This document shows, piece after piece, positions 3,898 through 30,426 of a stretch of 55,535 nucleotides of DNA; position 1 is the first letter of the stretch; the number at the start of each line of letters is the position of its first letter. This DNA is from Deltaproteobacteria bacterium (GTDB lineage: Bacteria; Myxococcota_A; UBA9160; SMWR01), in assembly GCA_019313245.1 (NCBI GenBank), contig JAFDBP010000234.1:1-55535 (forward strand), given 5' to 3'. The notes below the pieces were generated by a model. It made no database searches, was not told the origin of the DNA, and was given only the letters and a program-made list of their open reading frames with translations. The position numbers and the translations under genes are program-made.

Positions 3898-4131
3898 CGC
3901 CGCCAGTATAGCGCCGGGGCGGATCCCGCTGGCGTCGCAGAAACGGCTCCTAGCTCGCGATTCGATCGGCGGCTCTGGGCATGCGGGGTGAACGGATCCA
4001 CCCGATTACGTGGATCCGCCATAATCGCTACTTATTGGGCTTCGCAACTGGGCGGTGCGAACCGCCTGTCTCCGAGCGGCGCCACGAAAATCCGCTGGCG
4101 GCCGCCGAGTAGGGTTGAGACGACGGACGGT

Positions 4132-6030: not shown

Positions 6031-6168
6031 TGCGCGCAGAAGATCGTCCCATTGCCCGCGACAGCGAAACCAAAGCGGGTGATGCGGCTGAGCGATGAAA
6101 CCTCAGCGCGGAGAGGGAAGTGGGGCCGACTATAATGCGATCGGTGCATTCGCGAACCACGGATTGCG

Positions 6169-13612: not shown

Positions 13613-13641
13613 GTGATCGATTCGAAACCACTTCGGGCCCG

Positions 13642-15837
13642 ATGCCTTTCCCGGCGCCCGAGAGCCCTCGGTCGGCGAAGCGAATGACTCGCGCATTCTG
13701 GCAAGGCGTGCTCACGTCGCTGCTTGCGCTCGTTGTGTTCTTCGGCTTTCTCGAGGGAGTGCTGACACTCGCCGGCGTCGAGCCGGTGCTGCGAAGCGAG
13801 GATCCCTTCGTCGGCTTCGTCTCGGGCATTCCGCTCTTCGTCGAGCAGACCGACGCCGACGGCCGGCAGATCCTGACGATGCCCGAGAACAAGCTCACCT
13901 TCTTCAACCGCCAGAGTTTTCCGCGAGAGAAGGCGCCGGGCAGCTACCGCATCTTCTGTCTCGGGGGCTCGACGACCTACGGCCGCCCCTACAGCGACAC
14001 GACCTCGTTTGCCGGCTGGCTGCGCGAACTGCTGCCCGCGGCCGATCCCGATCGGCCCTGGGAGGTGATCAACGCGGGCGGCATCAGCTACGCGAGCTAC
14101 CGCGTGGCCCACCTGATGGAGGAACTGGTTCGCTACGAGCCGGATCTTTTCGTCATCTACACGGGCCACAACGAGTTCCTAGAAGAGCGAACCTACGGGG
14201 CGATGCGCGATCTTCCCGTCGCGGTTCGTTCGACCGCGGCGCTGCTCGCCCACACGCGAACCTGGGCAGCGTTGAAAATGCTGTTGAATTCCGTCGGCGC
14301 GTCGCCGAGCGCGGAAGCGGGCGGCAACGCCCGGTTGCCGGCCGAAGTCAACACGATGCTGGACCGTTCCGCGGGCCCCGAACGCTATGCGCGAGACGAC
14401 ACCCTGCGCGATCAGATCTTGCACCACTACCGGATCAGCCTCGAGCGAATGGTCGACATCGCCGAGCGCGCGGAGGCGGACGTCATCTTCGTCGTGCCGG
14501 CCTCGAACCTGAAGGACAGCGCGCCGTTCAAGAGCCAGCACACCGATGGTCTCGGCGAGGCGGATCGCCTGCGCTCGGAGGCGTTGCTCGCGGAGGCGCG
14601 GCGGCAAATCGAGAACGCGGCGTGGTCCGAGGCGCTCGAGGGGCTCGACGCGGCGCTCTCGCTCGACCCGCGCTTCGCGGGACTCCACTACCTACGCGGA
14701 AAGGTGTTGCTCGCGCTCGACAGACGCGATGAAGCGGCTGCGGCTTTTCGACGCGCTCGAGACGAGGACGTCTGTCCCCTCCGGGCACTGTCGCCGATGC
14801 GCGAGACGGTTGTCGAAGTGGCTCGCGCGAAGGGCGTGACGTGGGTCGACTTCGCGGATTTCGTCGAGCGGCGCGCACTCGCCGAGCGCGGATTGGCGAT
14901 CCCCGGCCGGGAGTATTTCCTGGACCACGTGCATCCGACGATCGAGGGCAACCGGCTGCTCGCAGTCGAGCTGGTCGAGGCGATGATCGCGCAGGGAATT
15001 GTGCGGCCCTCCAGCAGCTGGGGCGACGAGGCGATCGCCCGCGTCGTCTCGCGGGTCGAAGGGAGCATCGACCGCAAGACGCACGCGCAGGCGCTCGCGA
15101 ACCTCGCCCGGGTGCTCTCGTGGGCGGGCAAAGACGAGGATGCCCGGCGCCTCGCCAATCGGGCGGTCGAGCAGGTTCCAGAGATTGCGACGGCCAACGC
15201 CGACATTCTCGCGATTCTGTCCGAGCGCGAGGGCGACAAGGCCGAGACCTGGCGCCAGCTGCGGGCGGCGCTGCACGAAAACCCCGCCAACCCGCAGATC
15301 CACTTCCAGATCGGCCTCGAACTGCTCGACAAGAGCCAGCCGAATTGGAGCCTCGAGGCCGCGTCGGCGCACGTCCTGCTCGCCAGCGCATTCATGCCCG
15401 AAAACGACATGACGCATCAGATCCTGGGGCTCATCATGGCCGAGCGCGGGCGCTTCTCGATCGCCTACTCGAGCCTGCTGGAGGCGCTGCGCCTGAATCC
15501 GCGCAACGCCAAAGCGGAGTCGGCGCTCGCCCGCCTGCGCGAGATCCTGGGTTCGGAATTGCCGGACGCACCGCCGAAGGTGACACTGAAGCGTTACGCG
15601 TCGGGCGCTCCGGAACAGATCGTGCAGGTGAGAACGGATGCCGCCGGTGGCATCGTTCCCGACGGCATCGCGACGGACTGGTACGAAACCGGCGAGCCGC
15701 GCCGTCTGCTCGATTACGCCAACGGGGTGCCGCACGGCGCCGAGGTGACCTGGGATCCCAGCGGGCGCGTCCTCTCGCGAGCCGAGTATCGGCACGGCAC
15801 CCGGCTGCCGGCCGGCGAGCGGGACGGCGGCGGCTGA
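13642..15837 (+). CDS. membrane-anchored SGNH/GDSL-like hydrolase with TPR region and C-terminal MORN-variant repeats
   Basis: Start at 13642, or alternatively 13684. N-terminal TM helix. YRIFCLGGSTTYG (GDS-type block I) and YTGHNEF. TPR-like helices (LDAALSLDPRFAGLHYLRGKVLL). C-terminal DWYETGEPRRLLDYANGVPHGAEVTWDPSG. Confidence 0.75.
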   Translation: MPFPAPESPRSAKRMTRAFWQGVLTSLLALVVFFGFLEGVLTLAGVEPVLRSEDPFVGFVSGIPLFVEQTDADGRQILTMPENKLTFFNRQSFPREKAPGSYRIFCLGGSTTYGRPYSDTTSFAGWLRELLPAADPDRPWEVINAGGISYASYRVAHLMEELVRYEPDLFVIYTGHNEFLEERTYGAMRDLPVAVRSTAALLAHTRTWAALKMLLNSVGASPSAEAGGNARLPAEVNTMLDRSAGPERYARDDTLRDQILHHYRISLERMVDIAERAEADVIFVVPASNLKDSAPFKSQHTDGLGEADRLRSEALLAEARRQIENAAWSEALEGLDAALSLDPRFAGLHYLRGKVLLALDRRDEAAAAFRRARDEDVCPLRALSPMRETVVEVARAKGVTWVDFADFVERRALAERGLAIPGREYFLDHVHPTIEGNRLLAVELVEAMIAQGIVRPSSSWGDEAIARVVSRVEGSIDRKTHAQALANLARVLSWAGKDEDARRLANRAVEQVPEIATANADILAILSEREGDKAETWRQLRAALHENPANPQIHFQIGLELLDKSQPNWSLEAASAHVLLASAFMPENDMTHQILGLIMAERGRFSIAYSSLLEALRLNPRNAKAESALARLREILGSELPDAPPKVTLKRYASGAPEQIVQVRTDAAGGIVPDGIATDWYETGEPRRLLDYANGVPHGAEVTWDPSGRVLSRAEYRHGTRLPAGERDGGG

Positions 15838-16034: not shown

Positions 16035-16070
16035 GGTGATATCACCACCGCCAGCGTGGTGATATCACCA
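16035..16070. promoter_or_regulatory. twin palindromes GGTGATATCACC (16035-16046 and 16058-16069), candidate enhancer-binding-protein UAS
   Basis: Two perfect 12-bp palindromes, 23 bp centre to centre. The second extends to the 14-bp TGGTGATATCACCA. They lie about 90-115 bp upstream of the sigma-54 -24 element, with A/T tracts (about 16099-16143) in between. Confidence 0.6.
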
Positions 16071-16151: not shown

Positions 16152-16167
16152 TGGCACATCGGTTGCA
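16152..16167 (+). promoter_or_regulatory. sigma-54 (RpoN) promoter, TGGCAC-N5-TTGCA
   Basis: TGGCACatcggTTGCA is an exact match to the -24/-12 consensus TGGCAC-N5-TTGCW. It ends 15 nt before the ATG at 16183. Confidence 0.75.
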
Positions 16168-16182: not shown

Positions 16183-17364
16183 ATGATGAGGGAACCCCGG
16201 ATAACTTCACTGCTGGCGCTCTGGATCGCGCTGCTCGTGAGCCCGGCGTTCGCCGGCACGACGGCTTCGTTCCAGTATCCGCTCGCCAGCTTTTCGGGAC
16301 CGGTGGAATCCCTCTGGGCCCGGCTCGCGGTCGACCCCGAGCGAAACGAGATCTACACGCTGCGCCAGCGCAACAACGACATCCGGATCTATGACGAGCA
16401 CGGCATGGAGATCTTCGTGTTCGGCGAAGGCGTCGGCAGTGCCACCGACATCACGGTCGGCAACGGCGGCGACCTCTTCCTGCTCACCAGGGGATATCAG
16501 ACCGCGACCGTTCAGTTGCTGAACTACCGCGGTGAGCACGTCGCCGACATTCCGCTCAAAAACGTCCCGAGGGATTTTGCGGGAATCGTGCCCGACCGCA
16601 TCCAACACCAAAACGGTCTGCTCTATCTGGTCGATTCGAATGAGATGAAGGTGATCGTGGTCGACGAAGCGGGCCGCTTCGAGAAGGGCTACGACCTGGG
16701 CCGCGCGATCAAGCCCTTCATCCCCCGCGAAAAGGCGAGGCGAGAGCTGTCTGCGACCGACTGGCGCGCGCTTCAGCTCAACAACATCGACCTCAACGGC
16801 TTCACCGTCGACGCGCAGGGGAATCTGTTCTTCACCGTCCCGGTCCTGTTCCGAGCCTTCAAGCTATCGACTCACGGCGAGTTGACGGATTTCGGCAAGG
16901 CCGGCAGCGGACTCGGGAAGTTCGGTGTCATCGCGGGCATTGCCACCGACGAGTTCGGTTACGTCTACGTATCGGATCGGTTGCGGAGCGTGATCCTGGT
17001 CTTCAATAGCGACCTGGTATTTCAAACGGAGTTCGGTTACCGCGGCAACCTCCCGTCGAATTTGATCGTGCCAGACGATCTGGCAATTGATGGTAATGGC
17101 AATCTCTATGTTGGTCAGGCTGCATACAGAGGAGTGAGTGTATTCAAGGTAGTGCACCGAGACACAAGTTTTTCACGAGTGATTGAAGCAACACCAATCA
17201 ATGAAGTTGAAACATCCGACCGGAATATCGAAGAAGTAGAAGTAAGTCATCCGGAGTTCGCCGTCGATCTCGGAAGCGATGAAGCGTCGACGGATTCCGG
17301 GGATTCCAGTCGGAATACTGAGGCAGTTGGATCGCCTAACAATGAGGAAGGACAAAATGAGTAA
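16183..17364 (+). CDS. secreted NHL-repeat six-bladed beta-propeller protein with acidic C-terminal tail
   Basis: Signal peptide MMREPRITSLLALWIALLVSPAFAG. Repeated NHL-like blades (..LYLVDSNEMKVIVVD.., ..GYVYVSDRLRSVILVFN.., ..GNLYVGQAAYRGVSVFKV). The last 60 aa are D/E/S rich. Confidence 0.85.
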   Translation: MMREPRITSLLALWIALLVSPAFAGTTASFQYPLASFSGPVESLWARLAVDPERNEIYTLRQRNNDIRIYDEHGMEIFVFGEGVGSATDITVGNGGDLFLLTRGYQTATVQLLNYRGEHVADIPLKNVPRDFAGIVPDRIQHQNGLLYLVDSNEMKVIVVDEAGRFEKGYDLGRAIKPFIPREKARRELSATDWRALQLNNIDLNGFTVDAQGNLFFTVPVLFRAFKLSTHGELTDFGKAGSGLGKFGVIAGIATDEFGYVYVSDRLRSVILVFNSDLVFQTEFGYRGNLPSNLIVPDDLAIDGNGNLYVGQAAYRGVSVFKVVHRDTSFSRVIEATPINEVETSDRNIEEVEVSHPEFAVDLGSDEASTDSGDSSRNTEAVGSPNNEEGQNE

Positions 17365-18556
17365 AATCAATTGGGTAATGGTGCCGGGAATTGCTGCGCT
17401 GGCCGCGATTCTGACTCTCGGTCTTGCCGGCCCGGCAATGGCTCTGCACGCTGGCGGTGTCGCACACTGCGACGCGTGTCACAGCATGCACAACTCTCCC
17501 GACAATCCGGTTTCGGGAACCCCCAACAGTCTGCTGCTGAAGGGAACGGACGCCAGCTCGACCTGCCTGAACTGCCATGAGGGCACGGGCAGCTATGACG
17601 TCTACAGCAGCAACGGAGCCAACTTCTCGCCGGGTGGTGACTTCTTCTGGCTGGATGCGAACTATTCGAACATCGTTCGAGGCAACGCAGTTCCCTCCGA
17701 TCCGGATCAGTTCGGTCACAACGTGATCGCGGTCGACTTCGGTCTGGCGATCGACGGCAACAACGCTTCGGCTCCGGGCGGAACCTATCCCTCCGGCCTG
17801 CTGAGCTGCGCCAGCTGCCACGACCCGCACGGTCAGGTGAACGGCGGTACGGCCAATGGCATGGATCCGATCTCGGTATCGGGCTCCTACGGCGGAACCC
17901 CCGCCCCCGGCACGATCGCGGGCAACTATCGCCTGCTGGGCGACAACGGCTACGGCCTCGCGCCGGCCCCGATCGCCGTGACCGCTGGCTTCGGCGAGCT
18001 GGACGGTTCGATCGTCACCACGCCTGCTGACCCCAACGACCCGAACAGCGTTGACGAGTACGCGGTCAGCCATCCCGCATACGGACAGGGCATGTCCGAG
18101 TGGTGCGCGTCCTGCCACGGGAATTACATCAACGACAACCACAAGCATCCGGCAGGCAACGGCGAGTTCCTGAACGGTCAAGCCACCAACTACAACCAGT
18201 ATGTAGCCACGGGTGACTTCACCGGTTCCAGCGCCGATTCGTACGATGCACTGGTTCCCTTCGAGCTTCAGGAGACCGACAAGGCCACGCTGTTGGCTAG
18301 GGTCACCTCGCTGGAAGGCCCGAACACCAACAGCAACGTCATGTGCTTGACCTGCCACCGAGCGCATGCGTCGGCGTTCACCAACATCACCCGATGGAAC
18401 GTCGAGGACGAGCTGCTCGAGGACGGCTATCCGTCTGATGCGAACATGGTGACCATCGGTGCGGTGGCCCACGCTGACTACTACGGCCGTGACATTGCAA
18501 CGGACTACGGCACGTATCAGCGCTCCCTCTGCAACAAGTGCCACGTGAAGGACTGA
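17357..18556 (+). CDS. omcS: OmcS-family hexaheme c-type cytochrome (putative nanowire subunit)
   Basis: ATG at 17357 follows AGGAAGG and overlaps the NHL gene by 8 nt. Signal peptide ends ..GPAMA. Six CxxCH motifs (CDACH, CLNCH, CASCH, CASCH, CLTCH, CNKCH). The blocks LHAGGVAHCDACHSMHNS, YGQGMSEWCASCHG, HPAGNG, CLTCHRAHAS and YQRSLCNKCHVKD match my recollection of G. sulfurreducens OmcS. Confidence 0.9.
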   Translation: MSKINWVMVPGIAALAAILTLGLAGPAMALHAGGVAHCDACHSMHNSPDNPVSGTPNSLLLKGTDASSTCLNCHEGTGSYDVYSSNGANFSPGGDFFWLDANYSNIVRGNAVPSDPDQFGHNVIAVDFGLAIDGNNASAPGGTYPSGLLSCASCHDPHGQVNGGTANGMDPISVSGSYGGTPAPGTIAGNYRLLGDNGYGLAPAPIAVTAGFGELDGSIVTTPADPNDPNSVDEYAVSHPAYGQGMSEWCASCHGNYINDNHKHPAGNGEFLNGQATNYNQYVATGDFTGSSADSYDALVPFELQETDKATLLARVTSLEGPNTNSNVMCLTCHRAHASAFTNITRWNVEDELLEDGYPSDANMVTIGAVAHADYYGRDIATDYGTYQRSLCNKCHVKD

Positions 18557-18610
18557 GGCTATTTGTTGAGAGTGGTATGAAACAGCCGATTGAATCGGCG
18601 TAAGGAGAAG

Positions 18611-18648
18611 GGCTGGTGGTACATTCGTACCGCCAGCCTTTTTTCGCT
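18611..18648 (+). terminator. Rho-independent terminator downstream of omcS
   Basis: GGCTGGTGGTAC-attc-GTACCGCCAGCC forms a 12-bp stem with one G-U pair, followed by TTTTTTcgcTTTT. Confidence 0.75.
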
Positions 18649-18777: not shown

Positions 18778-20178
18778 ATGGGAAGGAGAACTCTCGGTAT
18801 CCTGGTCGCGCTCGTCGCGACGGCCTGCGTCCCGCTCCCCCCCGCCTACGAGTCCGTCTCGCGCACGGATGGGCTGCTGCGCATCTACCTCCAGCCGCTC
18901 CCCCAGGAAGCGCACCGGCTGCGTTTCAGCATTACGGAAATCCTGGCCCTGCGGGAAGACGGCGGCGCCGTCCGGCTGCGACAAAACTTCAGCGAACTGC
19001 ACGGGGAGGATCTGGTCGGGTTGCAGAGACTGCTGGTCTCGGCGGCGTTGCCACCGGGTTCTTACACGGGAATATCGCTGCAGTTGGGCGCGGCGTCGCT
19101 GCTCGGCGAGGCGGGGAGAACGGACCTGTTGGCGCCCGAGGAGCCGCTGTTGATCGAGCAGGATTTCCGGGTGGTCCGGCAGGTATCCAGCACCCTGTTC
19201 CTTTCGCTGGATCCGGAGGAGCTGGTCAGCAGCGGCTTCCGTTTCACACCTCTCTTCTATCTGGCGAAATCTCGACGCCAACTGGAGAGCCTGCTGGGCT
19301 TCGCGACGAATACGGGCGGCAACGTCGTTTCGGTCTTCAACAAGCACACGATGGAGATCGTCGAGACGATCGCGACGGGCAGTGGCCCAATGGGAGCCGC
19401 CCTCGATCAGCGCAGAAAGTGGGTCTACGTCGCCCTCGCTGGGGACGCCGAAATCGCGGCCATCGACGTGGGCACCACGCAGATCCTCCAACGGATCCGA
19501 TTGAACTTTGGCGACGAGCCCGTCGAAGTCGGCCTGTCGCCCGATGGCGAATTCCTCGTATCGGCCAACCGGGGTTCGAACACGGCGAGCATCATGGACA
19601 CCGGCTCCCTGCGCGAACTCGACCGGGTTCGCCTGCCGTCGGAGCCGGGTTCGGTCGTGATGAGCACCGTCGAGCCGCGGGCCTTCCTGCTCCAGCCGTT
19701 GGCCAACACGATTTCCATCGTCGACTTCGATCAACGACGTGTCGTCTTGAGCCAGACGCTGGAAGAGTCGCCCCTGCGCGGCGCCGTCAACGAGGACGGC
19801 ACCAGCCTGTTCGTCATTTCAGAGAACTCTCCAAATCTACTGGTCATCGACCCCCGGAATCTGCGGGTTACCGAGAGAATCTTCGTCGGTAGAGGCGCGA
19901 CATCCATCGAGCTAGATCCCAAAACTGGTTTGATTTATATTGGGATGAGAATGGGAGGCGTTGCTGTCGTCGATCCGTCGTTATTGATGCCAATCGACAC
20001 ATTCAGAGTAGATGGCAATGCGGTCGCCCTGGATATCGATGGCGACGAGAACAACCTGTTCGTGGTGTCATCGAATCAGCGAACGATCCGGAAGCTGGGT
20101 CTGGTCAGCCAAAAGCTCATAGGGACCATCGAGGTGGAAGAAGGATGCTATGCCGTCGTTCTGATGGGCGGACGGTAG
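18778..20178 (+). CDS. lipoprotein: DUF4382-like N-domain plus YVTN/YncE-type beta-propeller
   Basis: ATG at 18778. MGRRTLGILVALVATAC carries a lipobox. Repeated about 40-aa blades (GSGPMGAAL..WVYVALAGDAEIAAIDV, PVEVGLSPDGEFLVSANRGSNTASIMD, ..LFVISENSPNLLVIDP..). No CxxCH. Confidence 0.8.
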   Translation: MGRRTLGILVALVATACVPLPPAYESVSRTDGLLRIYLQPLPQEAHRLRFSITEILALREDGGAVRLRQNFSELHGEDLVGLQRLLVSAALPPGSYTGISLQLGAASLLGEAGRTDLLAPEEPLLIEQDFRVVRQVSSTLFLSLDPEELVSSGFRFTPLFYLAKSRRQLESLLGFATNTGGNVVSVFNKHTMEIVETIATGSGPMGAALDQRRKWVYVALAGDAEIAAIDVGTTQILQRIRLNFGDEPVEVGLSPDGEFLVSANRGSNTASIMDTGSLRELDRVRLPSEPGSVVMSTVEPRAFLLQPLANTISIVDFDQRRVVLSQTLEESPLRGAVNEDGTSLFVISENSPNLLVIDPRNLRVTERIFVGRGATSIELDPKTGLIYIGMRMGGVAVVDPSLLMPIDTFRVDGNAVALDIDGDENNLFVVSSNQRTIRKLGLVSQKLIGTIEVEEGCYAVVLMGGR

Positions 20179-20371
20179 ATCCCCTTGCGCCTGGGGGGCG
20201 AGGTTGACCAGATCGAACCGCCGATCGATCGCTAGGCGGTCCGCATCGCCAGATGTACGCCGTGAATGCCCCGGCAGAGGTCAAGTGCGGACGCGCAAAA
20301 GCCGACAAAGATGGCTGGGAATCTGCGCGTTTTTTCGCTCTCAGGCTCCGCAGGCTTTCGACTCCAGGTGG

Positions 20372-22525
20372 ATGATGCCCCAGCAGGCCGCTCGGTGGAT
20401 TCAATTGGCATCGCTGGCCGCGCTCGTGATCGCCTCCGCACCTGCGAGCGTGATGGCCGAAGGCGGCCAGATCAGCGTGAGGGCGGATCTGGAGTACCAG
20501 TACGCGGATACCGAGATAAAGGACGAAGCCAGCGGCGAAAAGACGGATACTGATTTTTCCCGCTTCAAGCACAAGTACGACGTGGAACTGCGACAAGAGC
20601 TTCTCCCATTCCTGGAAATCCGCAGCGGCGGCATCTTCGAATTCATCGACTTGTCGTCGAATGGCGAAGGCTTCGATGCGGACAGTCACGAGAGAACCCG
20701 ATGGCTATTCGGGGAACTCAACCTGAACAACCCGCTCTACACCGCCTCGACCGCGTATCGCCGGCGAAAGTTCGAATTCAATCGCGACGACACACCGAAG
20801 CTCGAGCGCGACCGCGAAGAAATCGCCGGTCTGCTGAAGTGGCGCCCGGTCGGATTCCCCGAGATCGATCTGGACGTCGATACGACCCGTATCTGGGACA
20901 AGGCGAATACGGTGGATCAGACGGTCGACCGCGTGTTGCTCAAGAGTCGGTATGACTACCGGGATGTCCACTTCGACTACACCTACACGAGACTCGACAC
21001 CGACAGAAAGATCGAGGATGCCGGGTCGCTGAACCAGGTGCACGACGCAGGCGTGTCGTACACCGATGAATTCTTCGAGGATCGGCTCCAGCTGACCAGC
21101 GCCGCCAGGTTGAATTACCAGATCCTCGAGCCCCGCGGAAACGAAGTCGTCGAGCGGCCCACGCCGCTACCCGATACCGTGTTCTACTTTGCGATCGACG
21201 GCGATCCCAACACGCTCGAATTGGTCCCCCCCGCCTCTCTCACGGACATCAACATCGGTCAAGGTGGCGGATTCAACACGGTTTCGGTCGGCTTGTACTT
21301 CGATCTCCCAACCGCGGCGGACAGAATCCATATTGGTCTGGATGCCGATGAGACCGTGGTCTTCGACGTAGCGGAAGACTTCGTATGGACGGTGTCCTGG
21401 ACCGACGACACGGACCTGGAACTGGCGATCTGGAATACGTTCCCGGCCAACAGCGTGAAAGCGAAATACGACCCCATCGAAAATCGCTTCGAGATCTCGT
21501 TTCCCCGCGTCGAGAATGCGATCGCCATCAAGGTCGCCACCGATCCTCAACCCACCGCGACCGGCCCGATCCTGATCAGTCGCATCCAGGCTTTCACGAC
21601 GGTCGCCGTGAGCCCGGGAGAGGACCTCGAAGACATCGACCACCACTACTCGCTGGGGCTTCGCTGGGCGTTCTCGGACCGGACGGATGCCTCATACCAG
21701 GGTTATTTCAGGCATCAGAAATTCGAACCGTTCGACACCACCAAGAAGACGTTTACCAACGGCCTCAGCTTGCGGCACCAATTTCACCCGAAACTCGTCG
21801 GGAACGCGAAAGTCCTGCGGACGGACACGGATGAGACGGCTCGGGACGATCTGACGAATCACTCCTACAGCGCGTCCCTGAGAGCGGACTATTTCGACAC
21901 CCTGCGCCAGACGCTGACCTACAGCGGTTTTCACGACGATCTGGGCGGCCGCACCAGTTACTCGAACGCGATTCTCCTGCGCACCAATGCCGATCTATAC
22001 GAGGGCTGGAGCGCCATCATGGATTTGAGCTATTCCGCCAAGCACCTCACGGAGGGCGACGACCTCAACGACGCGACCGTCAGGCTCACCACGAATGTAG
22101 ACCCGCATCCGAAACTCAAATTCGTGTTCGATTACCGACTCTCGCACGTCGACCAGACGGGCCGGTCTTCGTGGCTCGACCACCGCGCCCGATTCCAGGG
22201 TTTCTGGGTCCCGTTGAGAACGCTGAGTTTCTTTGCCTCGGTCAGGCTGAGGGATAACGGATTCGACGACGAGGGCCTGCTGGTGTCTCAAAACTACTCC
22301 GTCAGCTGGTCGCCCTTTCCCGACGGCTTGCTTCGGTTCTCCGTCGGCTACAATCGGTCCGTGGACACGAGGGACAATACCGTCAGCGCCCTATCGCCGA
22401 GGATCGATTGGCAGGTCACGCGTACCACGCTCTTTACGCTTCTTTCCAATCTGGGAACGACCGAAACGGATCGAGAGACCATAGACGTGAAGAACGTTCG
22501 CTTGACGCTGAGAACATTCTTCTAG
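20372..22525 (+). CDS. large outer-membrane beta-barrel protein (717 aa)
   Basis: ATG at 20372. Signal peptide ..APASVMA. Long run of alternating hydrophobic/polar strands rich in Y/D/R/T. Terminal ..RLTLRTFF with a C-terminal Phe, a BAM-type signature. Confidence 0.8.
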   Translation: MMPQQAARWIQLASLAALVIASAPASVMAEGGQISVRADLEYQYADTEIKDEASGEKTDTDFSRFKHKYDVELRQELLPFLEIRSGGIFEFIDLSSNGEGFDADSHERTRWLFGELNLNNPLYTASTAYRRRKFEFNRDDTPKLERDREEIAGLLKWRPVGFPEIDLDVDTTRIWDKANTVDQTVDRVLLKSRYDYRDVHFDYTYTRLDTDRKIEDAGSLNQVHDAGVSYTDEFFEDRLQLTSAARLNYQILEPRGNEVVERPTPLPDTVFYFAIDGDPNTLELVPPASLTDINIGQGGGFNTVSVGLYFDLPTAADRIHIGLDADETVVFDVAEDFVWTVSWTDDTDLELAIWNTFPANSVKAKYDPIENRFEISFPRVENAIAIKVATDPQPTATGPILISRIQAFTTVAVSPGEDLEDIDHHYSLGLRWAFSDRTDASYQGYFRHQKFEPFDTTKKTFTNGLSLRHQFHPKLVGNAKVLRTDTDETARDDLTNHSYSASLRADYFDTLRQTLTYSGFHDDLGGRTSYSNAILLRTNADLYEGWSAIMDLSYSAKHLTEGDDLNDATVRLTTNVDPHPKLKFVFDYRLSHVDQTGRSSWLDHRARFQGFWVPLRTLSFFASVRLRDNGFDDEGLLVSQNYSVSWSPFPDGLLRFSVGYNRSVDTRDNTVSALSPRIDWQVTRTTLFTLLSNLGTTETDRETIDVKNVRLTLRTFF

Positions 22526-22551
22526 TTGGACCGCTTCGGAAGGGAGGTTTC

Positions 22552-23127
22552 GTGACGGCAAAACAGCGCCCCCTCAACAGGATCCTGATGACGCTCGCCC
22601 TCATCCCCCTCGTGAGCTGCGTGTCCGATGACGTCTTTACCGAGCCGAACATGGATTTCGGGTCGTTGCGGGCCGTTGCGGTCCTGCCGTTCAACAACTT
22701 CACGGCGGAAGAATTCGCGTCCGCGCGCGTCAGGGATGCCTTCTCCACCATGTTGCTCGCGACGGGGGCACTCTACGTCATTCCGCCCGGCGAGGTGGCC
22801 CGGGCGATGGGGGCGATCGGCCGAATCCCGCGCGAAGGGCCTTCCAGCGAGCAGATCAAACAGCTCGCAGACGCGCTCGATGCCGATGCCATCATCACCG
22901 GTGTGGTGTTGGAGTACGGGCCCGTTCGGTCCGGTTCGGCGTCTGCGAATGTGGTTTCGGTCAGTCTTCAGATGATCGAGAAGGCCAGCGGTATGGTGGT
23001 GTGGTCGGCATCTTCCACAAGGGGCGGAATCACGGTCTGGGATCGCCTTTTCGGCGGAGGCGGGGAGCCGATGAACGCGGTCACCGAAAAGGTGGTCAAT
23101 GATCTCCTGGACAAGCTCTTCGATTAG
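22552..23127 (+). CDS. lipoprotein with one LpoB/TolB-N/PelC-like domain
   Basis: GTG at 22552 follows GGGAGG. MTAKQRPLNRILMTLALIPLVSC carries a lipobox. AVAVLPFNNFT .. IITGVVLEYG .. SLQMIEKASGMVVWS. Confidence 0.75.
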   Translation: MTAKQRPLNRILMTLALIPLVSCVSDDVFTEPNMDFGSLRAVAVLPFNNFTAEEFASARVRDAFSTMLLATGALYVIPPGEVARAMGAIGRIPREGPSSEQIKQLADALDADAIITGVVLEYGPVRSGSASANVVSVSLQMIEKASGMVVWSASSTRGGITVWDRLFGGGGEPMNAVTEKVVNDLLDKLFD

Positions 23128-24322
23128 CATCCGGCCGGTCTGGGGGCTGCTCGCGCTACTGGCCCTGTTGTCGCTCTCGAGCTGCGCCTCGCGGCCGGAG
23201 CCGTCCGACGGGCCTCCCGAGCCTCAATTGCCGCCGCCGGCCGGGCAAGCCGTGAACTACGGCGACCTCATCGCGGTACTTCCGATCAGCAACCTCACCG
23301 GCACGTCCGCGCCACTCCGGGCGGTCGAGAAGGTGTTGCGCGCGCAGCTGGCTCGCTGGGGTTTCCGAATCGTCGATGCCGACAGCCTCGCGAAGGTCAT
23401 GGATCGATACAGGATTCGCGATACGGGCGGCCTGAGTCCCGGGGTATTTCGGGCGCTCAGGGAGGAGACGGGAGCAGTCGGCGTTCTGATGACGTCGCTG
23501 GAGGTCTTCTACGAAGATCGATTTCCGAGGATCTCGTTGATGTCGAGGCTGGTTGCGGGTGGAGATCCTCCGGAAATCGCCTGGATGAGCGGAGTCGGGC
23601 TGGCCGGCGACGGCGATGTCGGGCTCCTCGCACTCGGGCGGGTCGGAGATCCCGACGCATTGATGGAAATCGCCGTACGCTGTCTCGTCGACTCGCTGGC
23701 GGGATCACTTACCGAAACTCAGGCGCTAGGCTCTTCCGCTTCCCATAACCGAATGAGTGAATGCGACTCGCGCGGTGAAGTCGTGTATTCTTCACCGGAG
23801 GCGAACGGCAAGAGGAGGTTTCGTCCGCGCAAACCCTTGGGATCTCCGATCACCGATGTCAACAGGCGGTACAGCGTCGCGGTCATTCCCTTCTTGAACC
23901 TGAGCCAGCGAAGAAATGCCGGCAGGATCCTGGAGCTTCACTTCGTCAATCAGTTGCTCCGGAACGAATCCCTTTCAGTCGTCGATCCCGGGCTCGTCAG
24001 GCAGGAGTTGCTCGCGAACAGGGTCGTCATGGCAGCGGGCCCATCGTTGGAAAATGCGAGGGTTCTATCCAGTGACGAATCTCTGGGAGCCGACCTGATC
24101 TTTTCGGGGGTCGTATTCGACTATCAGGACGGGTACGGCATACCGAAAGTCGACTTTTCCCTGACCGTGATCGAAAAGGAGAGCCACAAGGTGGTTTGGT
24201 CTTCGCGGAGCTACAGCACGGGAACCGAAGGGGTTCTCTTCTTCGATCTGGGCAGGGTGTATACGGCGCATCAACTGGCAGCTGAAATGGCCAGAGGAGC
24301 AACCGAAGCGCTGAGCCGGTGA
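23099..24322 (+). CDS. lipoprotein with two tandem LpoB/TolB-N/PelC-like domains
   Basis: ATG at 23099 overlaps the upstream gene by 29 nt. Lipobox LSLSSC. Domain 1 has LIAVLPISNLTG. Domain 2 has SVAVIPFLNLSQ .. LIFSGVVFDYQ .. LTVIEKESHKVVWS, parallel to the preceding gene. Confidence 0.75.
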   Translation: MISWTSSSISIRPVWGLLALLALLSLSSCASRPEPSDGPPEPQLPPPAGQAVNYGDLIAVLPISNLTGTSAPLRAVEKVLRAQLARWGFRIVDADSLAKVMDRYRIRDTGGLSPGVFRALREETGAVGVLMTSLEVFYEDRFPRISLMSRLVAGGDPPEIAWMSGVGLAGDGDVGLLALGRVGDPDALMEIAVRCLVDSLAGSLTETQALGSSASHNRMSECDSRGEVVYSSPEANGKRRFRPRKPLGSPITDVNRRYSVAVIPFLNLSQRRNAGRILELHFVNQLLRNESLSVVDPGLVRQELLANRVVMAAGPSLENARVLSSDESLGADLIFSGVVFDYQDGYGIPKVDFSLTVIEKESHKVVWSSRSYSTGTEGVLFFDLGRVYTAHQLAAEMARGATEALSR

Positions 24323-24407: not shown

Positions 24408-26186
24408 ATGCAGAAGAACAAGCTAGCTCGGCTCATCCCCGCACTACTCATCCTCGCGGTACCTAGCTTTGCAACCGTCGAAGATGGCGAGCCGACCGGG
24501 GAAGGAGATGCCGCCGGCGTCGAACGGGCAGAAGAGGTGCTGATCACGCTGGAGGTTCCACTGGGATCGCCGCTGTTTACGGACATGCCGGTGGCGGTGG
24601 TAGACGAAGAGCCGATCACTTTTCGCGATCTCACGCGGCGGATCGCGTCGATCCACGAGGATATGGACGAAGGCGCGAAGCCGTCCAGAAAAAACTTCGC
24701 GAAGCTGCTGGATCGAGTCATTACGACGCAACTGGTCGTTCACGAAGCGCGAAACATCGGGCTCGACGAGCTGCCCGAAGTCGTCATTAGCATCGAAAAT
24801 GCGTCGACGGATCTCTTGATCTCGAGGCTGATGTCGCTGAAACTCGATGAAGTGGAGCCGGATCCGGACGAGGTGGACGCCCTCTACGAGGAGATGTCGC
24901 GTGAATTTTTGATGTCGACGGTGAAGCTCCCGAAGGAAGAGGATGCGTTGGCCTTTGAGGAACTGATCGGTTCCGGCGAGAACTTCGACGAAGTCGCAAC
25001 CCAATTCGCCGAAGAGGGCCGGGCGGAATTCGATGCGAGCGACAAGACCTTCATCAAACTGAAGGATCTGCTGCCGAGGATGGCCCAGACGGCCATCGAC
25101 ATGGAGGAGGGTTCCGTCAGCGAAATATTCTCCGATCGCGACGGCTTCCTCCTCTTCCACGTCGGAGCCGTGCGCGGCTATGACGATCCCGAGCTGCGGG
25201 AAGAGGCGCGGCAGAAGGTGCTGGAGCCCGCACAGAAGAAAGCCGCGCGCGAGTACGGGGAATATCTGAGGAACAAGTACGCCACGGTCGATGAGCGACT
25301 GCTGGAGAAGGTCGATTTCGAAGTGAAGAAGACCGGCTTCCTGTCACTCGGCAAGGAAGAGCCGGTCGATTTCGCCGAACTCGAAAAGGACGAGCGCGTG
25401 GTTGCGACGACGCAAACCGATCCGCCGCTCACCGTGACGATCGGAGAGTTGGCGACCGCGGTGCGGGAATCGTATCACCACGGGATCGAGACGTCGTCCG
25501 TAAGGAGCAAGAAGCTCAACGCCAAGAAGCAGATCCTGCTGAAGAATATGTTGTTCAAGGAGGCGGCTTTGGCCGAAGCTCGAAACCTGGGACTCGACCA
25601 GACGAGCTCCTACCTCGACACGATGGACGAGTACACCACTTCGCTGCTCTTCGAGGTGTTCGTCAAGAAGGTGATCGTGCCCGATGTGGCGATTACCGAC
25701 GCCGATGTGCGCGAATACTTCGAGGGGCACCTGGACGAGTTTTCGACTCCCGCGATGTTCAGGCTGAACGCGATCGCCTTCGGCGAACGGGAAGGCGCCG
25801 AGCGCGCTCTGGGCAAGCTCGAGAAGCGAGCCGATTTCAAGTGGGTTTCCGCCAATTCGCCGGGCAGGATCGACGTCGTGAGCGGCGAATCCTTCGATTT
25901 CGACGGGAAACTGTTGGCCGTGACGGCCCTGCCCGAAGACCTGCACGAGAGCATCGAAGACTCCAAGCAGGGAGACGCCGTGATCTACTCCGACGGCAAG
26001 GGTTACCACCATGTGATTGTGGTCAGCAAGGTCTTTCCCTCGGAAACGCGGCCGTACGAGGACGTCAAGGGCTCGGTTGCTCGAATCATCTTCGAGCAGA
26101 AGCTCAAGGCATTGGTCGAAGACTGGAGCGGAAAGTTGGCAGAGGCATACGAAACGCGGATATTCATCACGGGGCTGGATGATTGA
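24408..26186 (+). CDS. periplasmic SurA/PpiD-like chaperone with parvulin-type PPIase domain
   Basis: Signal peptide MQKNKLARLIPALLILAVPSFA. Long helical SurA-N-like region. A C-terminal rotamase-like block (ADVREYFEGHLDEFSTPAMFRLNAIAF .. GYHHVIVVSKV). Confidence 0.75.
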   Translation: MQKNKLARLIPALLILAVPSFATVEDGEPTGEGDAAGVERAEEVLITLEVPLGSPLFTDMPVAVVDEEPITFRDLTRRIASIHEDMDEGAKPSRKNFAKLLDRVITTQLVVHEARNIGLDELPEVVISIENASTDLLISRLMSLKLDEVEPDPDEVDALYEEMSREFLMSTVKLPKEEDALAFEELIGSGENFDEVATQFAEEGRAEFDASDKTFIKLKDLLPRMAQTAIDMEEGSVSEIFSDRDGFLLFHVGAVRGYDDPELREEARQKVLEPAQKKAAREYGEYLRNKYATVDERLLEKVDFEVKKTGFLSLGKEEPVDFAELEKDERVVATTQTDPPLTVTIGELATAVRESYHHGIETSSVRSKKLNAKKQILLKNMLFKEAALAEARNLGLDQTSSYLDTMDEYTTSLLFEVFVKKVIVPDVAITDADVREYFEGHLDEFSTPAMFRLNAIAFGEREGAERALGKLEKRADFKWVSANSPGRIDVVSGESFDFDGKLLAVTALPEDLHESIEDSKQGDAVIYSDGKGYHHVIVVSKVFPSETRPYEDVKGSVARIIFEQKLKALVEDWSGKLAEAYETRIFITGLDD

Positions 26187-26242: not shown

Positions 26243-28231
26243 ATGTCGATAGTGAATTCAAAACGCTACAGATCTCTTATCGTTGGGATGGTGGGCTTTC
26301 TGTGCCTATGTCTCGCCCTGTCATTTCTCGCGACCCCTGCGCACGCGAAAAAGCGCAAGTTCAAGAAAAGAGATTGCGTGGATTGTCACGAAGAATACGT
26401 CGACAAGTACTTTTCGATGAAGAACATCCACGAGGTCGTCGAAGACCGGGAATGCGAAAGTTGCCATCTTCGACACGGCGTCGTCGGCAAACTTCTGCTG
26501 AAGGCGGAAGGCAACGATATCTGTTTCGAATGTCACAGTGCCGAAGACCTCGGACTCGATGCCCCGGGAGTTCATACGGCGCTGGTCAAGGGCACGTGTG
26601 CCTCCTGTCACAACCCACACGCATCGGATTCCCCGTACCTGCTGAGCGCCGAAGGCAATGCGATCTGTTACGAGTGCCACGAGCAAGACGATTACACGCG
26701 CGAGGTAGTTCACTCGGTGATCGAAGACGACGGCTGCGGGGGTTGCCATCGCTCGCACGCCTCGCCGGAGCAGAACCTGCTCAAGATGGCGCCGACGGAG
26801 CTCTGCGTTTCGTGCCACGAAAGCGATGATGGCGCTTTCAGCAAAGCGCACGCGGGTTACCCCGTAGCGCAGAAGTCCTGCACGAATTGCCACAATCCGC
26901 ATTCGTCGGACCTGCCCACACTGTTGAAATCGAGCGTTCACGATCCGGTACTCGGCGGCGAATGTGAGGCCTGCCACAATGCTCCCGCTGACGAAGACGC
27001 TTTCGAAGTCACCGACGAGAGCGCGGAGCTCTGTGGGGGTTGCCACGATTCTGTGGATCTCTACGAGTCCGGCAATGTGCAACACGGGCCGTTCGAGGAG
27101 GGGGCGTGTCTGGACTGTCACGATCCACATGCCGCTGAGGCGGAGACGCTGCTCGCGGAGCCCGGCAATCAGCTCTGCTTTACGTGCCACGAAGATACGA
27201 GTACGGGAGTGAGAAATCCGCACGATCCGGTCGAGAGCGCCGATGGCTGCCTTTCCTGCCACGCTCCGCATGCGGCCGCTCACGACCAGCTCTTGAAAGT
27301 TACCGGCGGCGAACTGTGTTTTTCGTGTCACGAGGAGGCCGCAGAGGCGGGGCGGCAGCTGGCGAATCAGCACGAGCCGTTCGAGGAGCAGCGATGCGTC
27401 GATTGCCACGATCCGCACGGCTCGAATGCTCCCGCCATTCTCAACGGCAGGCCGAGCGAAGTTTGTTATTCGTGTCACGCAGAAGTGGAAAATGACTTTT
27501 CGCAGCGCTATGTGCACACCCCGGTGCGGATGGGTGATTGCATCGGGTGCCACAGCGGTCACGGCTCGAGCGAAAGCAACCTCTTGAAGGCCGCCGATGC
27601 GGATCTCTGCGCCACATGCCACGAGGAATTCATGCAGGTAGCGCCGGAGATGCGCGTCCACGATCCCTTCGCGGATGGCGAATGCCTGACGTGCCACGCT
27701 CCTCATGCGAGTTCGTTCGAGGGGGTTTTGGTCAGTGAGCAGGCTTCGGTGTGCGCGGATTGCCACGACGGCGTCGGGACTGCAGTGGAGGGAGAGAAGA
27801 GCGCGCATCAACCGGTGGTTACCGGTGATTGCTCGAGTTGTCACAACCCGCACAAGGCGGCATTGGATTCGATGTTACTCGCGGTGACTCCCGATCTGTG
27901 CCTGAGTTGTCACGACGATCTGACGCGGAAGATGGAAACGGAGCGCGTGCACGAGCCCGTTGAAAACGATTGCGTGCAGTGTCATGTGGCACATCGCTCG
28001 AGCGAAGTCAGTCTGCTCAATCTTCCAGTCCAGGCTCTCTGCAGCGAGTGCCACGATGTAGAGGATGCTTCGTTCAGGAAATCCCACATCTACATCGACG
28101 CAGCCGTGATGGACTGCGTCAGTTGCCACGCTCCGCACACTTCGAAGGATCGAAGCTTCTTCAAGGAGAACATGCATTCACCTTTCGTGAAGCGGAACTG
28201 CGGCGAGTGCCACGTCGAGGGGCCGGAGTAG
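26243..28231 (+). CDS. multiheme c-type cytochrome, 26 CxxCH motifs
   Basis: 662 aa with an N-terminal signal/anchor. I counted 26 CxxCH. They alternate between plain CxxCH and CxxCHxxH[AGS]S types, a paired-CXXCH / c7-c3-like module array. Confidence 0.95.
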   Translation: MSIVNSKRYRSLIVGMVGFLCLCLALSFLATPAHAKKRKFKKRDCVDCHEEYVDKYFSMKNIHEVVEDRECESCHLRHGVVGKLLLKAEGNDICFECHSAEDLGLDAPGVHTALVKGTCASCHNPHASDSPYLLSAEGNAICYECHEQDDYTREVVHSVIEDDGCGGCHRSHASPEQNLLKMAPTELCVSCHESDDGAFSKAHAGYPVAQKSCTNCHNPHSSDLPTLLKSSVHDPVLGGECEACHNAPADEDAFEVTDESAELCGGCHDSVDLYESGNVQHGPFEEGACLDCHDPHAAEAETLLAEPGNQLCFTCHEDTSTGVRNPHDPVESADGCLSCHAPHAAAHDQLLKVTGGELCFSCHEEAAEAGRQLANQHEPFEEQRCVDCHDPHGSNAPAILNGRPSEVCYSCHAEVENDFSQRYVHTPVRMGDCIGCHSGHGSSESNLLKAADADLCATCHEEFMQVAPEMRVHDPFADGECLTCHAPHASSFEGVLVSEQASVCADCHDGVGTAVEGEKSAHQPVVTGDCSSCHNPHKAALDSMLLAVTPDLCLSCHDDLTRKMETERVHEPVENDCVQCHVAHRSSEVSLLNLPVQALCSECHDVEDASFRKSHIYIDAAVMDCVSCHAPHTSKDRSFFKENMHSPFVKRNCGECHVEGPE

Positions 28232-28235
28232 GCGG

Positions 28236-29519
28236 ATGAGACCTGTGAGATTCCGATCGTTCTGGGTTTTTCTGGGCGCAGCGGCCTGGCTGGTCGTCTT
28301 CGCGGGGACTCAGGCGAACGCGGCCAACGATTTCCGGTTGAAGAAGACCTCGATTACGGACGCATGCGTAGAGTGCCACGACGAGTTCGTGGAAATCTTG
28401 AAGCGGCCTTTCCTGCACACCCCGGTCGCCAAGGGGGACTGCGCGGGCTGTCACAACCCACATACCTCGAAGCGCGCGATGCTATTGGATGCCGAATCCG
28501 GCAAGATCTGCCAGAGCTGTCACGAAGAGATGTTCGAAGGGGAAGCGCAGAGTTCCCACCGGATATTTGTGCAAGGCAAGTGCTTTTCATGCCACGATGC
28601 GCACGGCTCTGAAAACAAGCAGAATCTGATCCGAGCCGGGAGTGCGCTCTGCATCGAGTGTCACGACGAGCTGGGCCAAAAGCTCGCGACCAACAAATTC
28701 GAGCACGATCCCGTGACGGACAGTTGCGTGGAGTGTCACGATCCCCACGCATCGAAGAAGAGCGACAACCTTCTGGTGGATGCACAGCCCTCCCTGTGTC
28801 TGGATTGTCACGAGGCGAACGACGCGTCGTTCAAACAGGTGCACAAGAACTACCCCGTCGAAAAAGCTCGCTGTACGGCGTGCCACAATCCGCACGGCTC
28901 GAACACTGCAGGTATCCTGTTCGACAACGTTCACGAGCCGGTTGCCGAGCGGGCATGTGGCGAGTGCCACACCAAATCGACGTCATCGTCACCGTTTGCC
29001 CTCAAGGACGTCGGCCTCGATCTCTGCGAGGGTTGCCACTACGAAACGGTGGTCGATGCGCTCAACAAATCGATGGTGCACTGGCCGATGCTCGACGACA
29101 GAGGTTGTGTCAACTGCCATGCGCCACACGCCTCGGAAGAGGACTTTCTGCTGAAGGGAACGCAAGCCGAAGTCTGCAGCGAATGCCATACGGACACGGT
29201 GGATCGCCAGAAGCGATCGCGGACCGAGCACCCACCGATCGCGGAAGGGGCATGTGGTGAATGCCACGCTCCCCACAGCTCAGACAATACCTTCCTGATC
29301 AACCAGCCGACCGCGATCGAAGTCTGCGCAAAATGTCACGAATGGCAGAGGCATTCGTCGCATCCGATCGGCGAGGAGATCGTCGATCCCCGAAACGCCA
29401 ACGTCACCCTGGAATGCTCGAGTTGTCACCGGACGCACGGAACCGAATATGAGCACTTCATCTACTTCCGAACGAAGGACGAGCTGTGCGTCCAGTGCCA
29501 TACGAATCTTCGGAGATGA
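28236..29519 (+). CDS. multiheme c-type cytochrome, 16 CxxCH motifs (paralog of the 26-heme protein)
   Basis: 427 aa. ATG lies 4 nt after the upstream stop. Signal peptide ..GTQANA. 16 CxxCH counted, with the same alternating module pattern. Confidence 0.95.
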   Translation: MRPVRFRSFWVFLGAAAWLVVFAGTQANAANDFRLKKTSITDACVECHDEFVEILKRPFLHTPVAKGDCAGCHNPHTSKRAMLLDAESGKICQSCHEEMFEGEAQSSHRIFVQGKCFSCHDAHGSENKQNLIRAGSALCIECHDELGQKLATNKFEHDPVTDSCVECHDPHASKKSDNLLVDAQPSLCLDCHEANDASFKQVHKNYPVEKARCTACHNPHGSNTAGILFDNVHEPVAERACGECHTKSTSSSPFALKDVGLDLCEGCHYETVVDALNKSMVHWPMLDDRGCVNCHAPHASEEDFLLKGTQAEVCSECHTDTVDRQKRSRTEHPPIAEGACGECHAPHSSDNTFLINQPTAIEVCAKCHEWQRHSSHPIGEEIVDPRNANVTLECSSCHRTHGTEYEHFIYFRTKDELCVQCHTNLRR

Positions 29520-29523
29520 CAGA

Positions 29524-30426
29524 TTGAGGCGAACCTACGTTGCTATCGCTGCCCTGGCCCTGTTCCTGTGGATGCCACAGATCGCAGGCGCCGCGGAATA
29601 CGGCTTCAAATGGGTGACGTCGATCTACGCGGATGCCGACGGCATCGGACTGAAACGCCCCGAGGGTGTCGCGTGTGGCGAGAAACGCGTCGTGGTTGCC
29701 GACACCGGCAACCGGCGCCTCGTGCGCTACGGCTACGATGGTGACGAGGTGAGCGCCGAGAGGGTATTTCCGCTCGGAAAATCGAGTCCGACCGTCCTTC
29801 AATTCAACTCGAAGGGCGACCTCTATTTTCTCGACGGAAGAGACCGCCGGATCGTCGTATTGAAGGCGAGCGGCGAGCGAGTCGGATCCCTGAATCCGAA
29901 GAGCATGCCATCCTCCAAGGAAATCGTTCCGAAGAGCTTCCGGATCGACGGAGACGACAACATCTATATTCTCGACATCTTTTCCCAGCAAGTGATCATT
30001 CTCGATCCGGATTGGCAACTTTCCAGAACGATTCCGCTTCCGAAGGACCGCGGCTTCTTCTCGGACCTCGCGATCGATCGGCAGGGAAAGATCTACGTCG
30101 TGGACAGTGTCGAGGCGGTCGTCCACGTCGCGGTGAAGGGTGCGGAGACATTCACGCGATTCACCGAGAGCATGAAGGAGCTCGTGAATTTCCCGGCCAG
30201 ATTGACGATCGACGCTCAAGGAGTTCTGTATCTGGTCGACCAGAACGGCAGTGGTCTCGGACTGGTCGCCCCGGATGGTGCCTCACTCGGGCGGCGGCTT
30301 GGGCTCGGCTGGAACAAGAGCGGGCTCTATTACCCATCCCAGATTTGCATCAGCGCCGGCGGCAACGTGTTCATCGCCGACCGGAACAACAACCGCGTTC
30401 AGATGTTCACGGTATCTGCGGACTGA
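29524..30426 (+). CDS. secreted NHL-repeat beta-propeller protein
   Basis: TTG at 29524, with GGAG 9 nt upstream, gives MRRTYVAIAALALFLWMPQIAGA. The longer track ORF overlaps the cytochrome gene. Blades: RVVVADTGNRRLVRY, DLYFLDGRDRRIVVL, NIYILDIFSQQVIILD, KIYVVDSVEAVVHV, VLYLVDQNGSGLGLV, NVFIADRNNNRVQMF. Confidence 0.8.
   Translation: MRRTYVAIAALALFLWMPQIAGAAEYGFKWVTSIYADADGIGLKRPEGVACGEKRVVVADTGNRRLVRYGYDGDEVSAERVFPLGKSSPTVLQFNSKGDLYFLDGRDRRIVVLKASGERVGSLNPKSMPSSKEIVPKSFRIDGDDNIYILDIFSQQVIILDPDWQLSRTIPLPKDRGFFSDLAIDRQGKIYVVDSVEAVVHVAVKGAETFTRFTESMKELVNFPARLTIDAQGVLYLVDQNGSGLGLVAPDGASLGRRLGLGWNKSGLYYPSQICISAGGNVFIADRNNNRVQMFTVSAD

Follow-up and report, generated by a model that had tools for sequence, protein, structure and literature searches.

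One of the main questions in the study of extracellular electron transfer is how a six-haem protein that is already folded gets across the outer membrane and assembles into a conductive filament micrometres in length. In Geobacter sulfurreducens, the most promising candidates at present for the OmcS export machinery are the genes of the omcS-companion (osc) cluster. Within this cluster, oscC is GSU2501, oscI is GSU2495, which encodes a periplasmic cytochrome, and oscJ is GSU2494 (PMC13194489). According to the account of Shen et al. (2025, Cell Chem Biol 32:239) given in the same paper, OscE, OscF and OscG were proposed to act in secretion, OscD in morphology and OscH in folding; the machinery is described as 'widespread and ancient' in the title of the Shen et al. 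paper, and a preprint outlines the same model in summary form (bioRxiv 10.1101/2025.10.22.684050). An eight-gene block, GSU2500-GSU2493, was linked to the maturation and secretion of OmcS nanowires (bioRxiv 10.1101/2025.11.06.686851). In the export complex PelBC, the PelB barrel bears a ring of twelve PelC lipoproteins on its periplasmic side (PMC12141448). Here we analysed a contig of 55,535 nucleotides from a Deltaproteobacteria bacterium (GenBank assembly GCA_019313245.1, contig JAFDBP010000234.1, forward strand; GTDB lineage Bacteria; Myxococcota_A; UBA9160; SMWR01), referred to below as the window, in which four consecutive genes at 18778-24322 encode a propeller lipoprotein, a large beta-barrel and two further lipoproteins.

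Our comparison indicates that these four genes are the counterparts of OscD, OscE, OscF and OscG of G. sulfurreducens, an assignment that is very well supported but indirect. They lie in the middle of a tight ten-gene run on the + strand of the window, in the order NHL-repeat protein, OmcS-like hexahaem cytochrome, propeller lipoprotein, barrel, first lipoprotein, second lipoprotein, peptidyl-prolyl isomerase (PPIase), two multihaem cytochromes, and a closing NHL-repeat protein. The four genes directly follow the gene of the OmcS-family hexahaem protein, and the block matches the order of the eight genes GSU2500-GSU2493, so that position after the hexahaem gene, gene order, gene count and protein types are the same in both organisms. 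The individual assignments were made by counting along the operon: the propeller lipoprotein corresponds to OscD (GSU2500), the barrel to OscE (GSU2499), the 191-aa lipoprotein to OscF (GSU2498), the two-domain lipoprotein to OscG (GSU2497, annotated 'lipoprotein'), the PPIase to OscH (GSU2496), and the 26-haem and 16-haem cytochromes to OscI and OscJ (GSU2495 and GSU2494). The OscD model alignment spans 473 residues (PMC13194489), and the OscD-like protein of the window has 466 aa. The window differs from G. sulfurreducens in having only one hexahaem gene and lacking the omcS/omcT pair, which fits the pattern of G. luticola and Geobacter sp. H2geo, where only a GSU2501-like hexahaem gene precedes the block (bioRxiv 10.1101/2025.11.06.686851), and in coming from an organism that is not a Geobacter. 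The system is therefore one already known and published in 2025, and the window adds one more member of it from a non-Geobacter lineage.

A preliminary description of the region, made from the letters alone, had seen four consecutive envelope proteins here and proposed that they form a dedicated outer-membrane conduit for OmcS that works without an ATPase. The four envelope proteins, all encoded on the + strand, were borne out with three small corrections, and the proposed conduit coincides with the model published in 2025 for the Geobacter orthologues, so that the idea is not new. Its further suggestions, that haem-loaded subunits pass in a folded state and that the channel templates their polymerisation, found no support in our analyses. 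In agreement with the preliminary reading, a motif scan of all four proteins for CxxCH and Walker A (GxxxxGK[ST]) returned neither; CxxCH was likewise found in 0 of 42 propeller homologues and 0 of 44 barrel homologues. The block as a whole contains no ATPase and no component of a known secretion system.

The gene in front of the four (17357..18556, + strand) encodes an OmcS-family hexahaem cytochrome with six CxxCH motifs, the presumed filament subunit, at the position of GSU2501/OscC. It aligned over its full length with OmcS (PDB 6EF8/6NEF) at E=1.1e-65. The histidine that aligns with OmcS His16, which we take to be the inter-subunit haem ligand bridging subunits in the filament, is kept in the window protein.

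In order to follow the cluster across genomes, we used 44 loci, one genome per species, which were collected with a single conserved barrel peptide and do not include G. sulfurreducens PCA. Barrel searches gave 46 matches with the window protein and 36 with a Geobacteraceae profile, and synteny was established by tblastn of the ten window proteins against the 44 loci. The ten-gene order was kept in nearly all of them wherever the contig reached far enough. The loci came from Geobacteraceae (Geomobilimonas luticola, Geomonas, Geotalea and Geobacter spp.), Nitrospirota, Gemmatimonadota, Schekmanbacteria and many metagenome-assembled genomes (MAGs) labelled 'Deltaproteobacteria'. Geomobilimonas luticola (locus L020) and Geobacter sp. 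H2geo (L028) were both collinear with the window, and the barrels of Geobacteraceae were 23-27% identical to that of the window. In most related loci the first NHL gene also stood directly upstream of the hexahaem gene.

Departures from this order were informative about the parts of the block. In L004, L005, L013 and L017 the PPIase-cytochrome module (OscH-OscI-OscJ) was inverted and lay upstream on the opposite strand, while the NHL, OmcS-like, OscD and OscE genes remained collinear, together with OscF and OscG in L004, L013 and L017. An inverted module beside a collinear core indicates that the block consists of two separable modules. In L015 the gene of the second lipoprotein (OscG) was found ~8 kb beyond that of the first (OscF), and in L006, L034 and L042 the OmcS-like gene was located elsewhere in the locus. 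A scan of metagenomes with the OmcS sequence gave a best OmcS of 72% identity. In the metagenome contig Ga0208371_1000194 (L046), a 72%-identical OmcS is followed by a gap of ~3.5 kb, by another hexahaem gene with 52% identity to OmcS, and finally by homologues of OscD to OscG. This contig resembles the G. sulfurreducens type of arrangement with more than one OmcS paralogue, and L018 and L025 carry three OmcS paralogues in tandem.

The OscF-like lipoprotein (22552..23127, + strand; 191 aa) contains one PelC/GNA1162/LpoB-like domain. Its likely start is the GTG at 22552 and not the start of the open reading frame (ORF) at 22408; this GTG is preceded by GGAAGGGAGG, a good ribosome-binding site, and a homologue search that found 1362 proteins gave lengths of 191-193 aa among the best 120 of the 1362 matches, in agreement with 191 aa. 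The protein scored above the Pfam cut-offs for both PF13036 (LpoB; 27.6 bits against 22.3) and PF05643 (GNA1162-like; 27.0 bits against 25.9), and it matched PelC by sequence, with E=2e-4 to 9H80 on its own and E=1.2e-5 to 5T11 with the family profile. A predicted structure with a pLDDT of 77.9 (~67-92 for blocks of 10 residues beyond the signal peptide) gave the PelC structures 5T0Z, 5T10, 5T11 and 9H80 as the top Foldseek matches, with TM scores (target) of 0.66-0.77 at 20-23% identity. These structures come from Geobacter metallireducens, Paraburkholderia and Pseudomonas, and were followed by GNA1162, LpoB, the TolB N-domain and CsgG. The analogy with PelBC drawn in the preliminary description holds, then, for the lipoproteins, in sequence matches as well as in fold. 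The OscF-like protein would work like PelC but is not PelC, since the block has no pel operon and no tetratricopeptide-repeat (TPR) barrel.

The OscG-like lipoprotein (23099..24322, + strand; 407 aa) had no direct match in Pfam or NCBIfam. It was recognised as a protein of two PelC-like domains by its homology to the OscF-like protein, with a BLASTP E value of 3e-13. Profile comparison with hhalign gave a probability of 99.2% (E=3e-19) for the OscG C-domain against OscF, 97.1% (E=5e-11) for the OscG N-domain against the OscG C-domain, and 93.3% (E=3e-7) for the OscG N-domain against OscF, and on this evidence the three lipoprotein domains are homologous at a significant level. Of the motifs that the preliminary description had seen as shared, all three domains carry the N-terminal [AV]V[LI]P[FI]xN[FL][TS], as AVLPFNNFT, AVLPISNLT and AVIPFLNLS; the other two, further along, hold strictly only in the third gene and in the C-domain of the fourth.

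Both proteins carry a lipobox, LVSC in the OscF-like and LSSC in the OscG-like protein, and a lipobox was present in 38 of 43 OscF homologues. The residue after the lipidated cysteine is V or A, not D, in the two window proteins, which fits sorting to the outer membrane if the E. coli +2 rule is taken to apply. The two genes overlap by exactly 29 nt (23099-23127), as had been noted before, and the overlap is 29 or 26 nt in 26 of 34 related loci. This conserved overlap suggests translational coupling and a fixed ratio of the two products. In loci L002-L043, OscG homologues begin with M-x-S-S-x-S-F, read in the other frame over the conserved C-terminus of OscF (…DLLDKLF).

The OscE-like protein (20372..22525, + strand) is an outer-membrane beta-barrel of 717 aa with a cleavable signal peptide (...APASVMA|EGG). 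Its length and its C-terminal TFF are exactly those given in the preliminary description, and most homologues likewise end in an aromatic residue. No match to Pfam, NCBIfam or PDB sequences (PDB at E<=1) was obtained, also when the family profile was used. The family is nevertheless large and uniform in length, with 1465 clusters at 50% identity for E<=1e-3 and 850 for E<=1e-30. The closest barrels are 66-67% identical to the window protein, and the best match in a species-representative genome, at 46%, is in a MAG of Gemmatimonadota.

An AlphaFold2 model built from a 23-sequence alignment had a mean pLDDT of 87.9. In this model the barrel is predicted to begin where the signal peptide ends, and it has no plug, POTRA, TPR or jelly-roll domain at its N-terminus. 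Eleven strands are followed by an insert at residues ~255-400 and then by ~17-18 strands, and from the model we put the barrel at about 28-30 strands. Foldseek against the PDB with this model returned generic barrels only, with 225 matches at E<=0.001. Membership in the TonB-dependent, LptD, BamA and usher families was rejected, as there was no sequence match in Pfam, NCBIfam or the PDB and no plug, POTRA or jelly-roll domain. With the standard relation of barrel geometry, n of ~28 and a shear of ~n+2, we estimate from the strand count a C-alpha diameter of ~5 nm and a lumen of ~4 nm. The OmcS filament is roughly 4 nm wide, and the estimated lumen is close to this width.

The inserted domain is a beta-sandwich, and by strand parity it would leave the barrel on the extracellular side of the membrane. 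In one family member the equivalent region matched an F5/8 type C, galactose-binding-like domain (PF22633, E=1e-6); the insert of the window protein itself had no Pfam match even at E<=10. Residues 346-400 (window 21407-21571) hold the densest near-invariant columns of the family, 23.6 per 100, compared with the fewer 6.6-8 per 100 in the barrel walls. The invariant residues of the insert are W354, N371-R372-x-E374-I375, K387 and I400, and its motifs are NRFEI and IKVxTxP. A second hot spot of conservation in the barrel, QNYSVxWSPFPDG, lies near residues 640-652.

The first of the four genes (18778..20178, + strand) encodes the OscD-like propeller lipoprotein of 466 aa. Its N-terminus, MGRRTLGILVALVATAC, is a lipoprotein-type signal (…LVATAC). 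The lipobox of the window protein itself, VATAC, is non-canonical, and a lipobox-like motif, mostly LAGC, occurs in 37 of 42 homologues. The preliminary description had called this protein a DUF4382-like/YVTN propeller lipoprotein. The propeller part stood, with matches to the YVTN repeat model TIGR02276 (E=9e-17, above the cut-off), the YncE-like propeller PF21783 (E=1e-9) and the YVTN propeller of PDB 1L0Q (E=1e-23). The DUF4382 part did not reach its threshold (15.3 bits, where 25 are required; E=0.024). The architecture is accordingly a weakly DUF4382-like N-terminal domain followed by a YVTN/YncE-type beta-propeller. Collinear homologues with 32-55% identity were found in 42 loci.

The remaining genes of the block have the properties expected from the assignment made above. 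Directly after the OscG-like gene follows an OscH-like periplasmic PpiC-type prolyl isomerase with a SurA-like N-terminus (24408..26186, + strand; PF13145 at E=3e-21, and PF00639). The OscI-like cytochrome (26243..28231, + strand) has 26 CxxCH motifs in 662 residues, and its homologues in related loci are 41-59% identical and collinear. The OscJ-like cytochrome (28236..29519, + strand) has 16 CxxCH motifs in 427 residues and also has collinear homologues. The OscI-like and OscJ-like proteins carry about one haem per 25-27 residues. The block is opened by an NHL/beta-propeller repeat protein with a signal peptide (16183..17364, + strand), whose weak matches to propeller repeats in Pfam and NCBIfam were all below the curated cut-offs, and is closed by an NHL-repeat protein at the GSU2493 position (ORF bounds 29449..30426, + strand), identified by its collinear homologues; the true start of this last gene is probably a little downstream of the ORF start at 29449.

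Upstream of the cluster the window carries genes for polysaccharide modification (1554-9806 on the - strand and 13429-15837 on the + strand), among them a pyruvyl transferase, a GT2 glycosyltransferase and a DegT-type aminotransferase, and an SGNH-hydrolase/TPR protein gene stands directly before the operon. These sugar genes recall the glycosylation genes that are often found after OmcE clusters (bioRxiv 10.1101/2025.10.22.684050).

We also searched the window for signals that might control the operon. An exact match to the sigma-54 -24/-12 consensus, TGGCACatcggTTGC (TGGCAC-N5-TTGC; 16152..16166, + strand), is a candidate promoter; it lies 17 nt upstream of the operon's first gene, so that there is hardly any leader. 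Across the whole window the number of matches to the sigma-54 consensus was not above chance, and it is only the position and the neighbouring gene of a sigma-54 activator that make this site suggestive. A doubled 12-bp palindrome, GGTGATATCACC-N11-GGTGATATCACC (16035-16069, + strand), lies ~85-115 nt upstream of the consensus and could be an enhancer-binding site. A scan of the window for sigma-70 promoters gave nothing above chance. The activator is a sigma-54-dependent response regulator (30448-31836, - strand), convergent with the cluster and right after it, which forms a pair with a HAMP/PAS histidine kinase (31836-33680, - strand); both are candidates for regulating the cluster. L045 has the same pair beside its cluster, and the annotations of GSU2506/GSU2507 beside omcS are the same as those of the window pair.

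A terminator-like hairpin of 19 pairs followed by a T run (18604..18645, + strand) is located between the subunit gene and the OscD-like gene. At the equivalent intergenic site, a GC-rich hairpin with a T run was present in 22 of 33 related loci. The hairpin has the appearance of an attenuator, through which expression of the subunit gene could be kept much higher than that of the machinery genes.

These observations can be combined into a mechanism. The hexahaem subunit would leave the cytoplasm through Sec, receive its haems and, assisted by the OscH prolyl isomerase, fold in the periplasm. Below OscE, at the inner leaflet of the outer membrane, OscF and OscG would assemble into a ring like that of PelC and funnel the subunits into the barrel, whose lumen the subunits would then pass. 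Polymerisation would take place outside the cell, with inter-subunit His-haem ligation, and not ATP, as the driving force. The OscD propeller lipoprotein may modulate the morphology or bundling of the filament, and OscI and OscJ would feed electrons to the filament base. In our judgement the model as a whole, in which the four proteins are OscD-OscG orthologues that act in the export of an OmcS-type filament, is reasonably probable in this form, and its export function is the part that we infer. A more specific version is put forward only tentatively, and we are rather doubtful of it: the export gate would have an architecture of the PelBC type that now passes a folded haem protein in place of polysaccharide, with OscF and OscG at 1:1 in a pseudo-dodecameric ring (e.g. 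4 x 3 domains), the barrel of ~28-30 strands above it, and the insert with its NRFEI and IKVxTxP motifs as an extracellular gate or a template for polymerisation. If this is true, the OscE-type barrel would rank among the largest known outer-membrane barrels made of a single chain.

Several points weigh against the export model and have to be set beside it. The orthology is based on Geobacteraceae intermediates and the literature, rather than on a direct alignment with G. sulfurreducens. The strand count was taken from the secondary-structure string only, which has 29 elements, so that one of them must be misassigned. As far as the model tells, the inserted domain may plug the lumen of OscE. 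In L005, neither OscF nor OscG was found within 10 kb downstream. Finally, MtrB is the nearest structure and two large periplasmic multihaem cytochromes are encoded in the operon, and the barrel could accordingly be mainly an anchor or a feed-through.

This last point leads to the competing explanation that deserves most attention, namely that the barrel is an MtrB-like sheath, anchor or electron feed-through around the filament base or around OscI/OscJ, that the lipoproteins stabilise the junction, and that export takes place elsewhere, e.g. through a type IV/type II secretion system (T2SS)-like pilus. The best PDB match of the barrel by TM score was indeed MtrB (6R2Q chain B), with 0.41/0.45 at 7% identity, against 0.22-0.29 for all other PDB barrels, and conservation of the block extends to the two very large multihaem cytochromes. 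In the words of Petersen et al., such barrels are 'putatively functioning as a secretion or anchor'; an earlier pilus-pump model is also noted there (bioRxiv 10.1101/2025.10.22.684050). However, the barrel has no sequence similarity to MtrB, as no PDB sequence matched at E<=1, and it stays beside the OmcS-like gene where OscH-OscI-OscJ is inverted or separated. Furthermore, PelC-like rings are known from an export complex (PMC12141448), and the model as related in PMC13194489 assigns OscE/F/G to secretion. The resemblance to MtrB and the co-encoded cytochromes thus favour an anchor, whereas the separability of OscH-OscI-OscJ and the precedent of PelC speak against it, and on balance we consider an anchor with export elsewhere unlikely. 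Anchor and export roles are not mutually exclusive, and the two could coexist in one complex.

Because both the sequence and the fold of the OscF-like protein come closest to PelC, a PelBC-like exporter of an exopolysaccharide that anchors or coats cytochrome filaments was weighed as well. The pyruvyl transferase, GT2, DegT aminotransferase and SGNH/TPR genes upstream in the window, and the glycosylation genes reported after OmcE clusters, would suit such an exporter. The neighbours that persist across phyla are, however, the OmcS-family gene, the PPIase and the cytochromes, not glycosyltransferases or a synthase, and the block has no pel, pga, bcs or alg homologues. PelB-type barrels are 16-stranded; the window barrel is far larger, is unrelated to them, has no TPR domain, and did not bring PelB into the top 50 of its 225 Foldseek matches. 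We regard a polysaccharide exporter as highly improbable. There is next to no chance, in our estimate, that the four are housekeeping proteins (TonB-dependent, LptD/LptE, BamA or usher) that merely stand beside cytochrome genes. Many TonB-dependent transporters, LptD and FimD/PapC appeared in the Foldseek listing with E values of ~1e-8 to 1e-6, but their TM scores of 0.22-0.29 at 6-10% identity amount to generic barrel similarity. The preliminary description had named membership in the TonB-dependent, LptD or BamA families together with housekeeping synteny as a finding that would count against its proposal; we found no family match, and wherever a locus was long enough to assess, the conserved neighbourhood was specifically that of OmcS-family genes.

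The window reveals no new kind of system. Its value lies in structural clues with which the published model can be tested more readily, namely the triple PelC-like domains, the overlap of OscF and OscG, the large barrel with its conserved insert, the hairpin, and the candidate sigma-54 promoter.

Compared with the systems described to date, the PelBC complex (5T0Z, 5T10, 5T11, 9H80) shares with the window a lipoprotein encoded next to an outer-membrane barrel, and the lack of an outer-membrane ATPase. It differs in that the three PelC-like domains of the window are spread over two coupled genes and not contained in one, in that the cargo is presumably a folded haem protein and not a polysaccharide, and in that the genes around the barrel encode cytochromes and not Pel proteins. 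MtrB (6R2Q), like the window barrel, is a large barrel encoded together with multihaem cytochromes. The MtrB barrel has 26 strands, and by its secondary-structure string the window barrel appears to have a few more; it also has an inserted beta-sandwich, PelC-like lipoproteins as companions, and a presumably filament-forming OmcS homologue as a partner. The chaperone-usher and curli (CsgG) systems resemble the osc-type locus in offering a polymerising fibre a route across the outer membrane that does not use ATP, and in the co-encoded periplasmic folding factor. Ushers and CsgG were distant Foldseek matches, with low TM scores (0.27-0.37 for ushers and ~0.4-0.48, normalised to the query, for CsgG) and no family match, and the subunit of the window is a folded six-haem protein, unlike the Ig-like pilins of the usher pathway or the unfolded amyloid subunit of curli.

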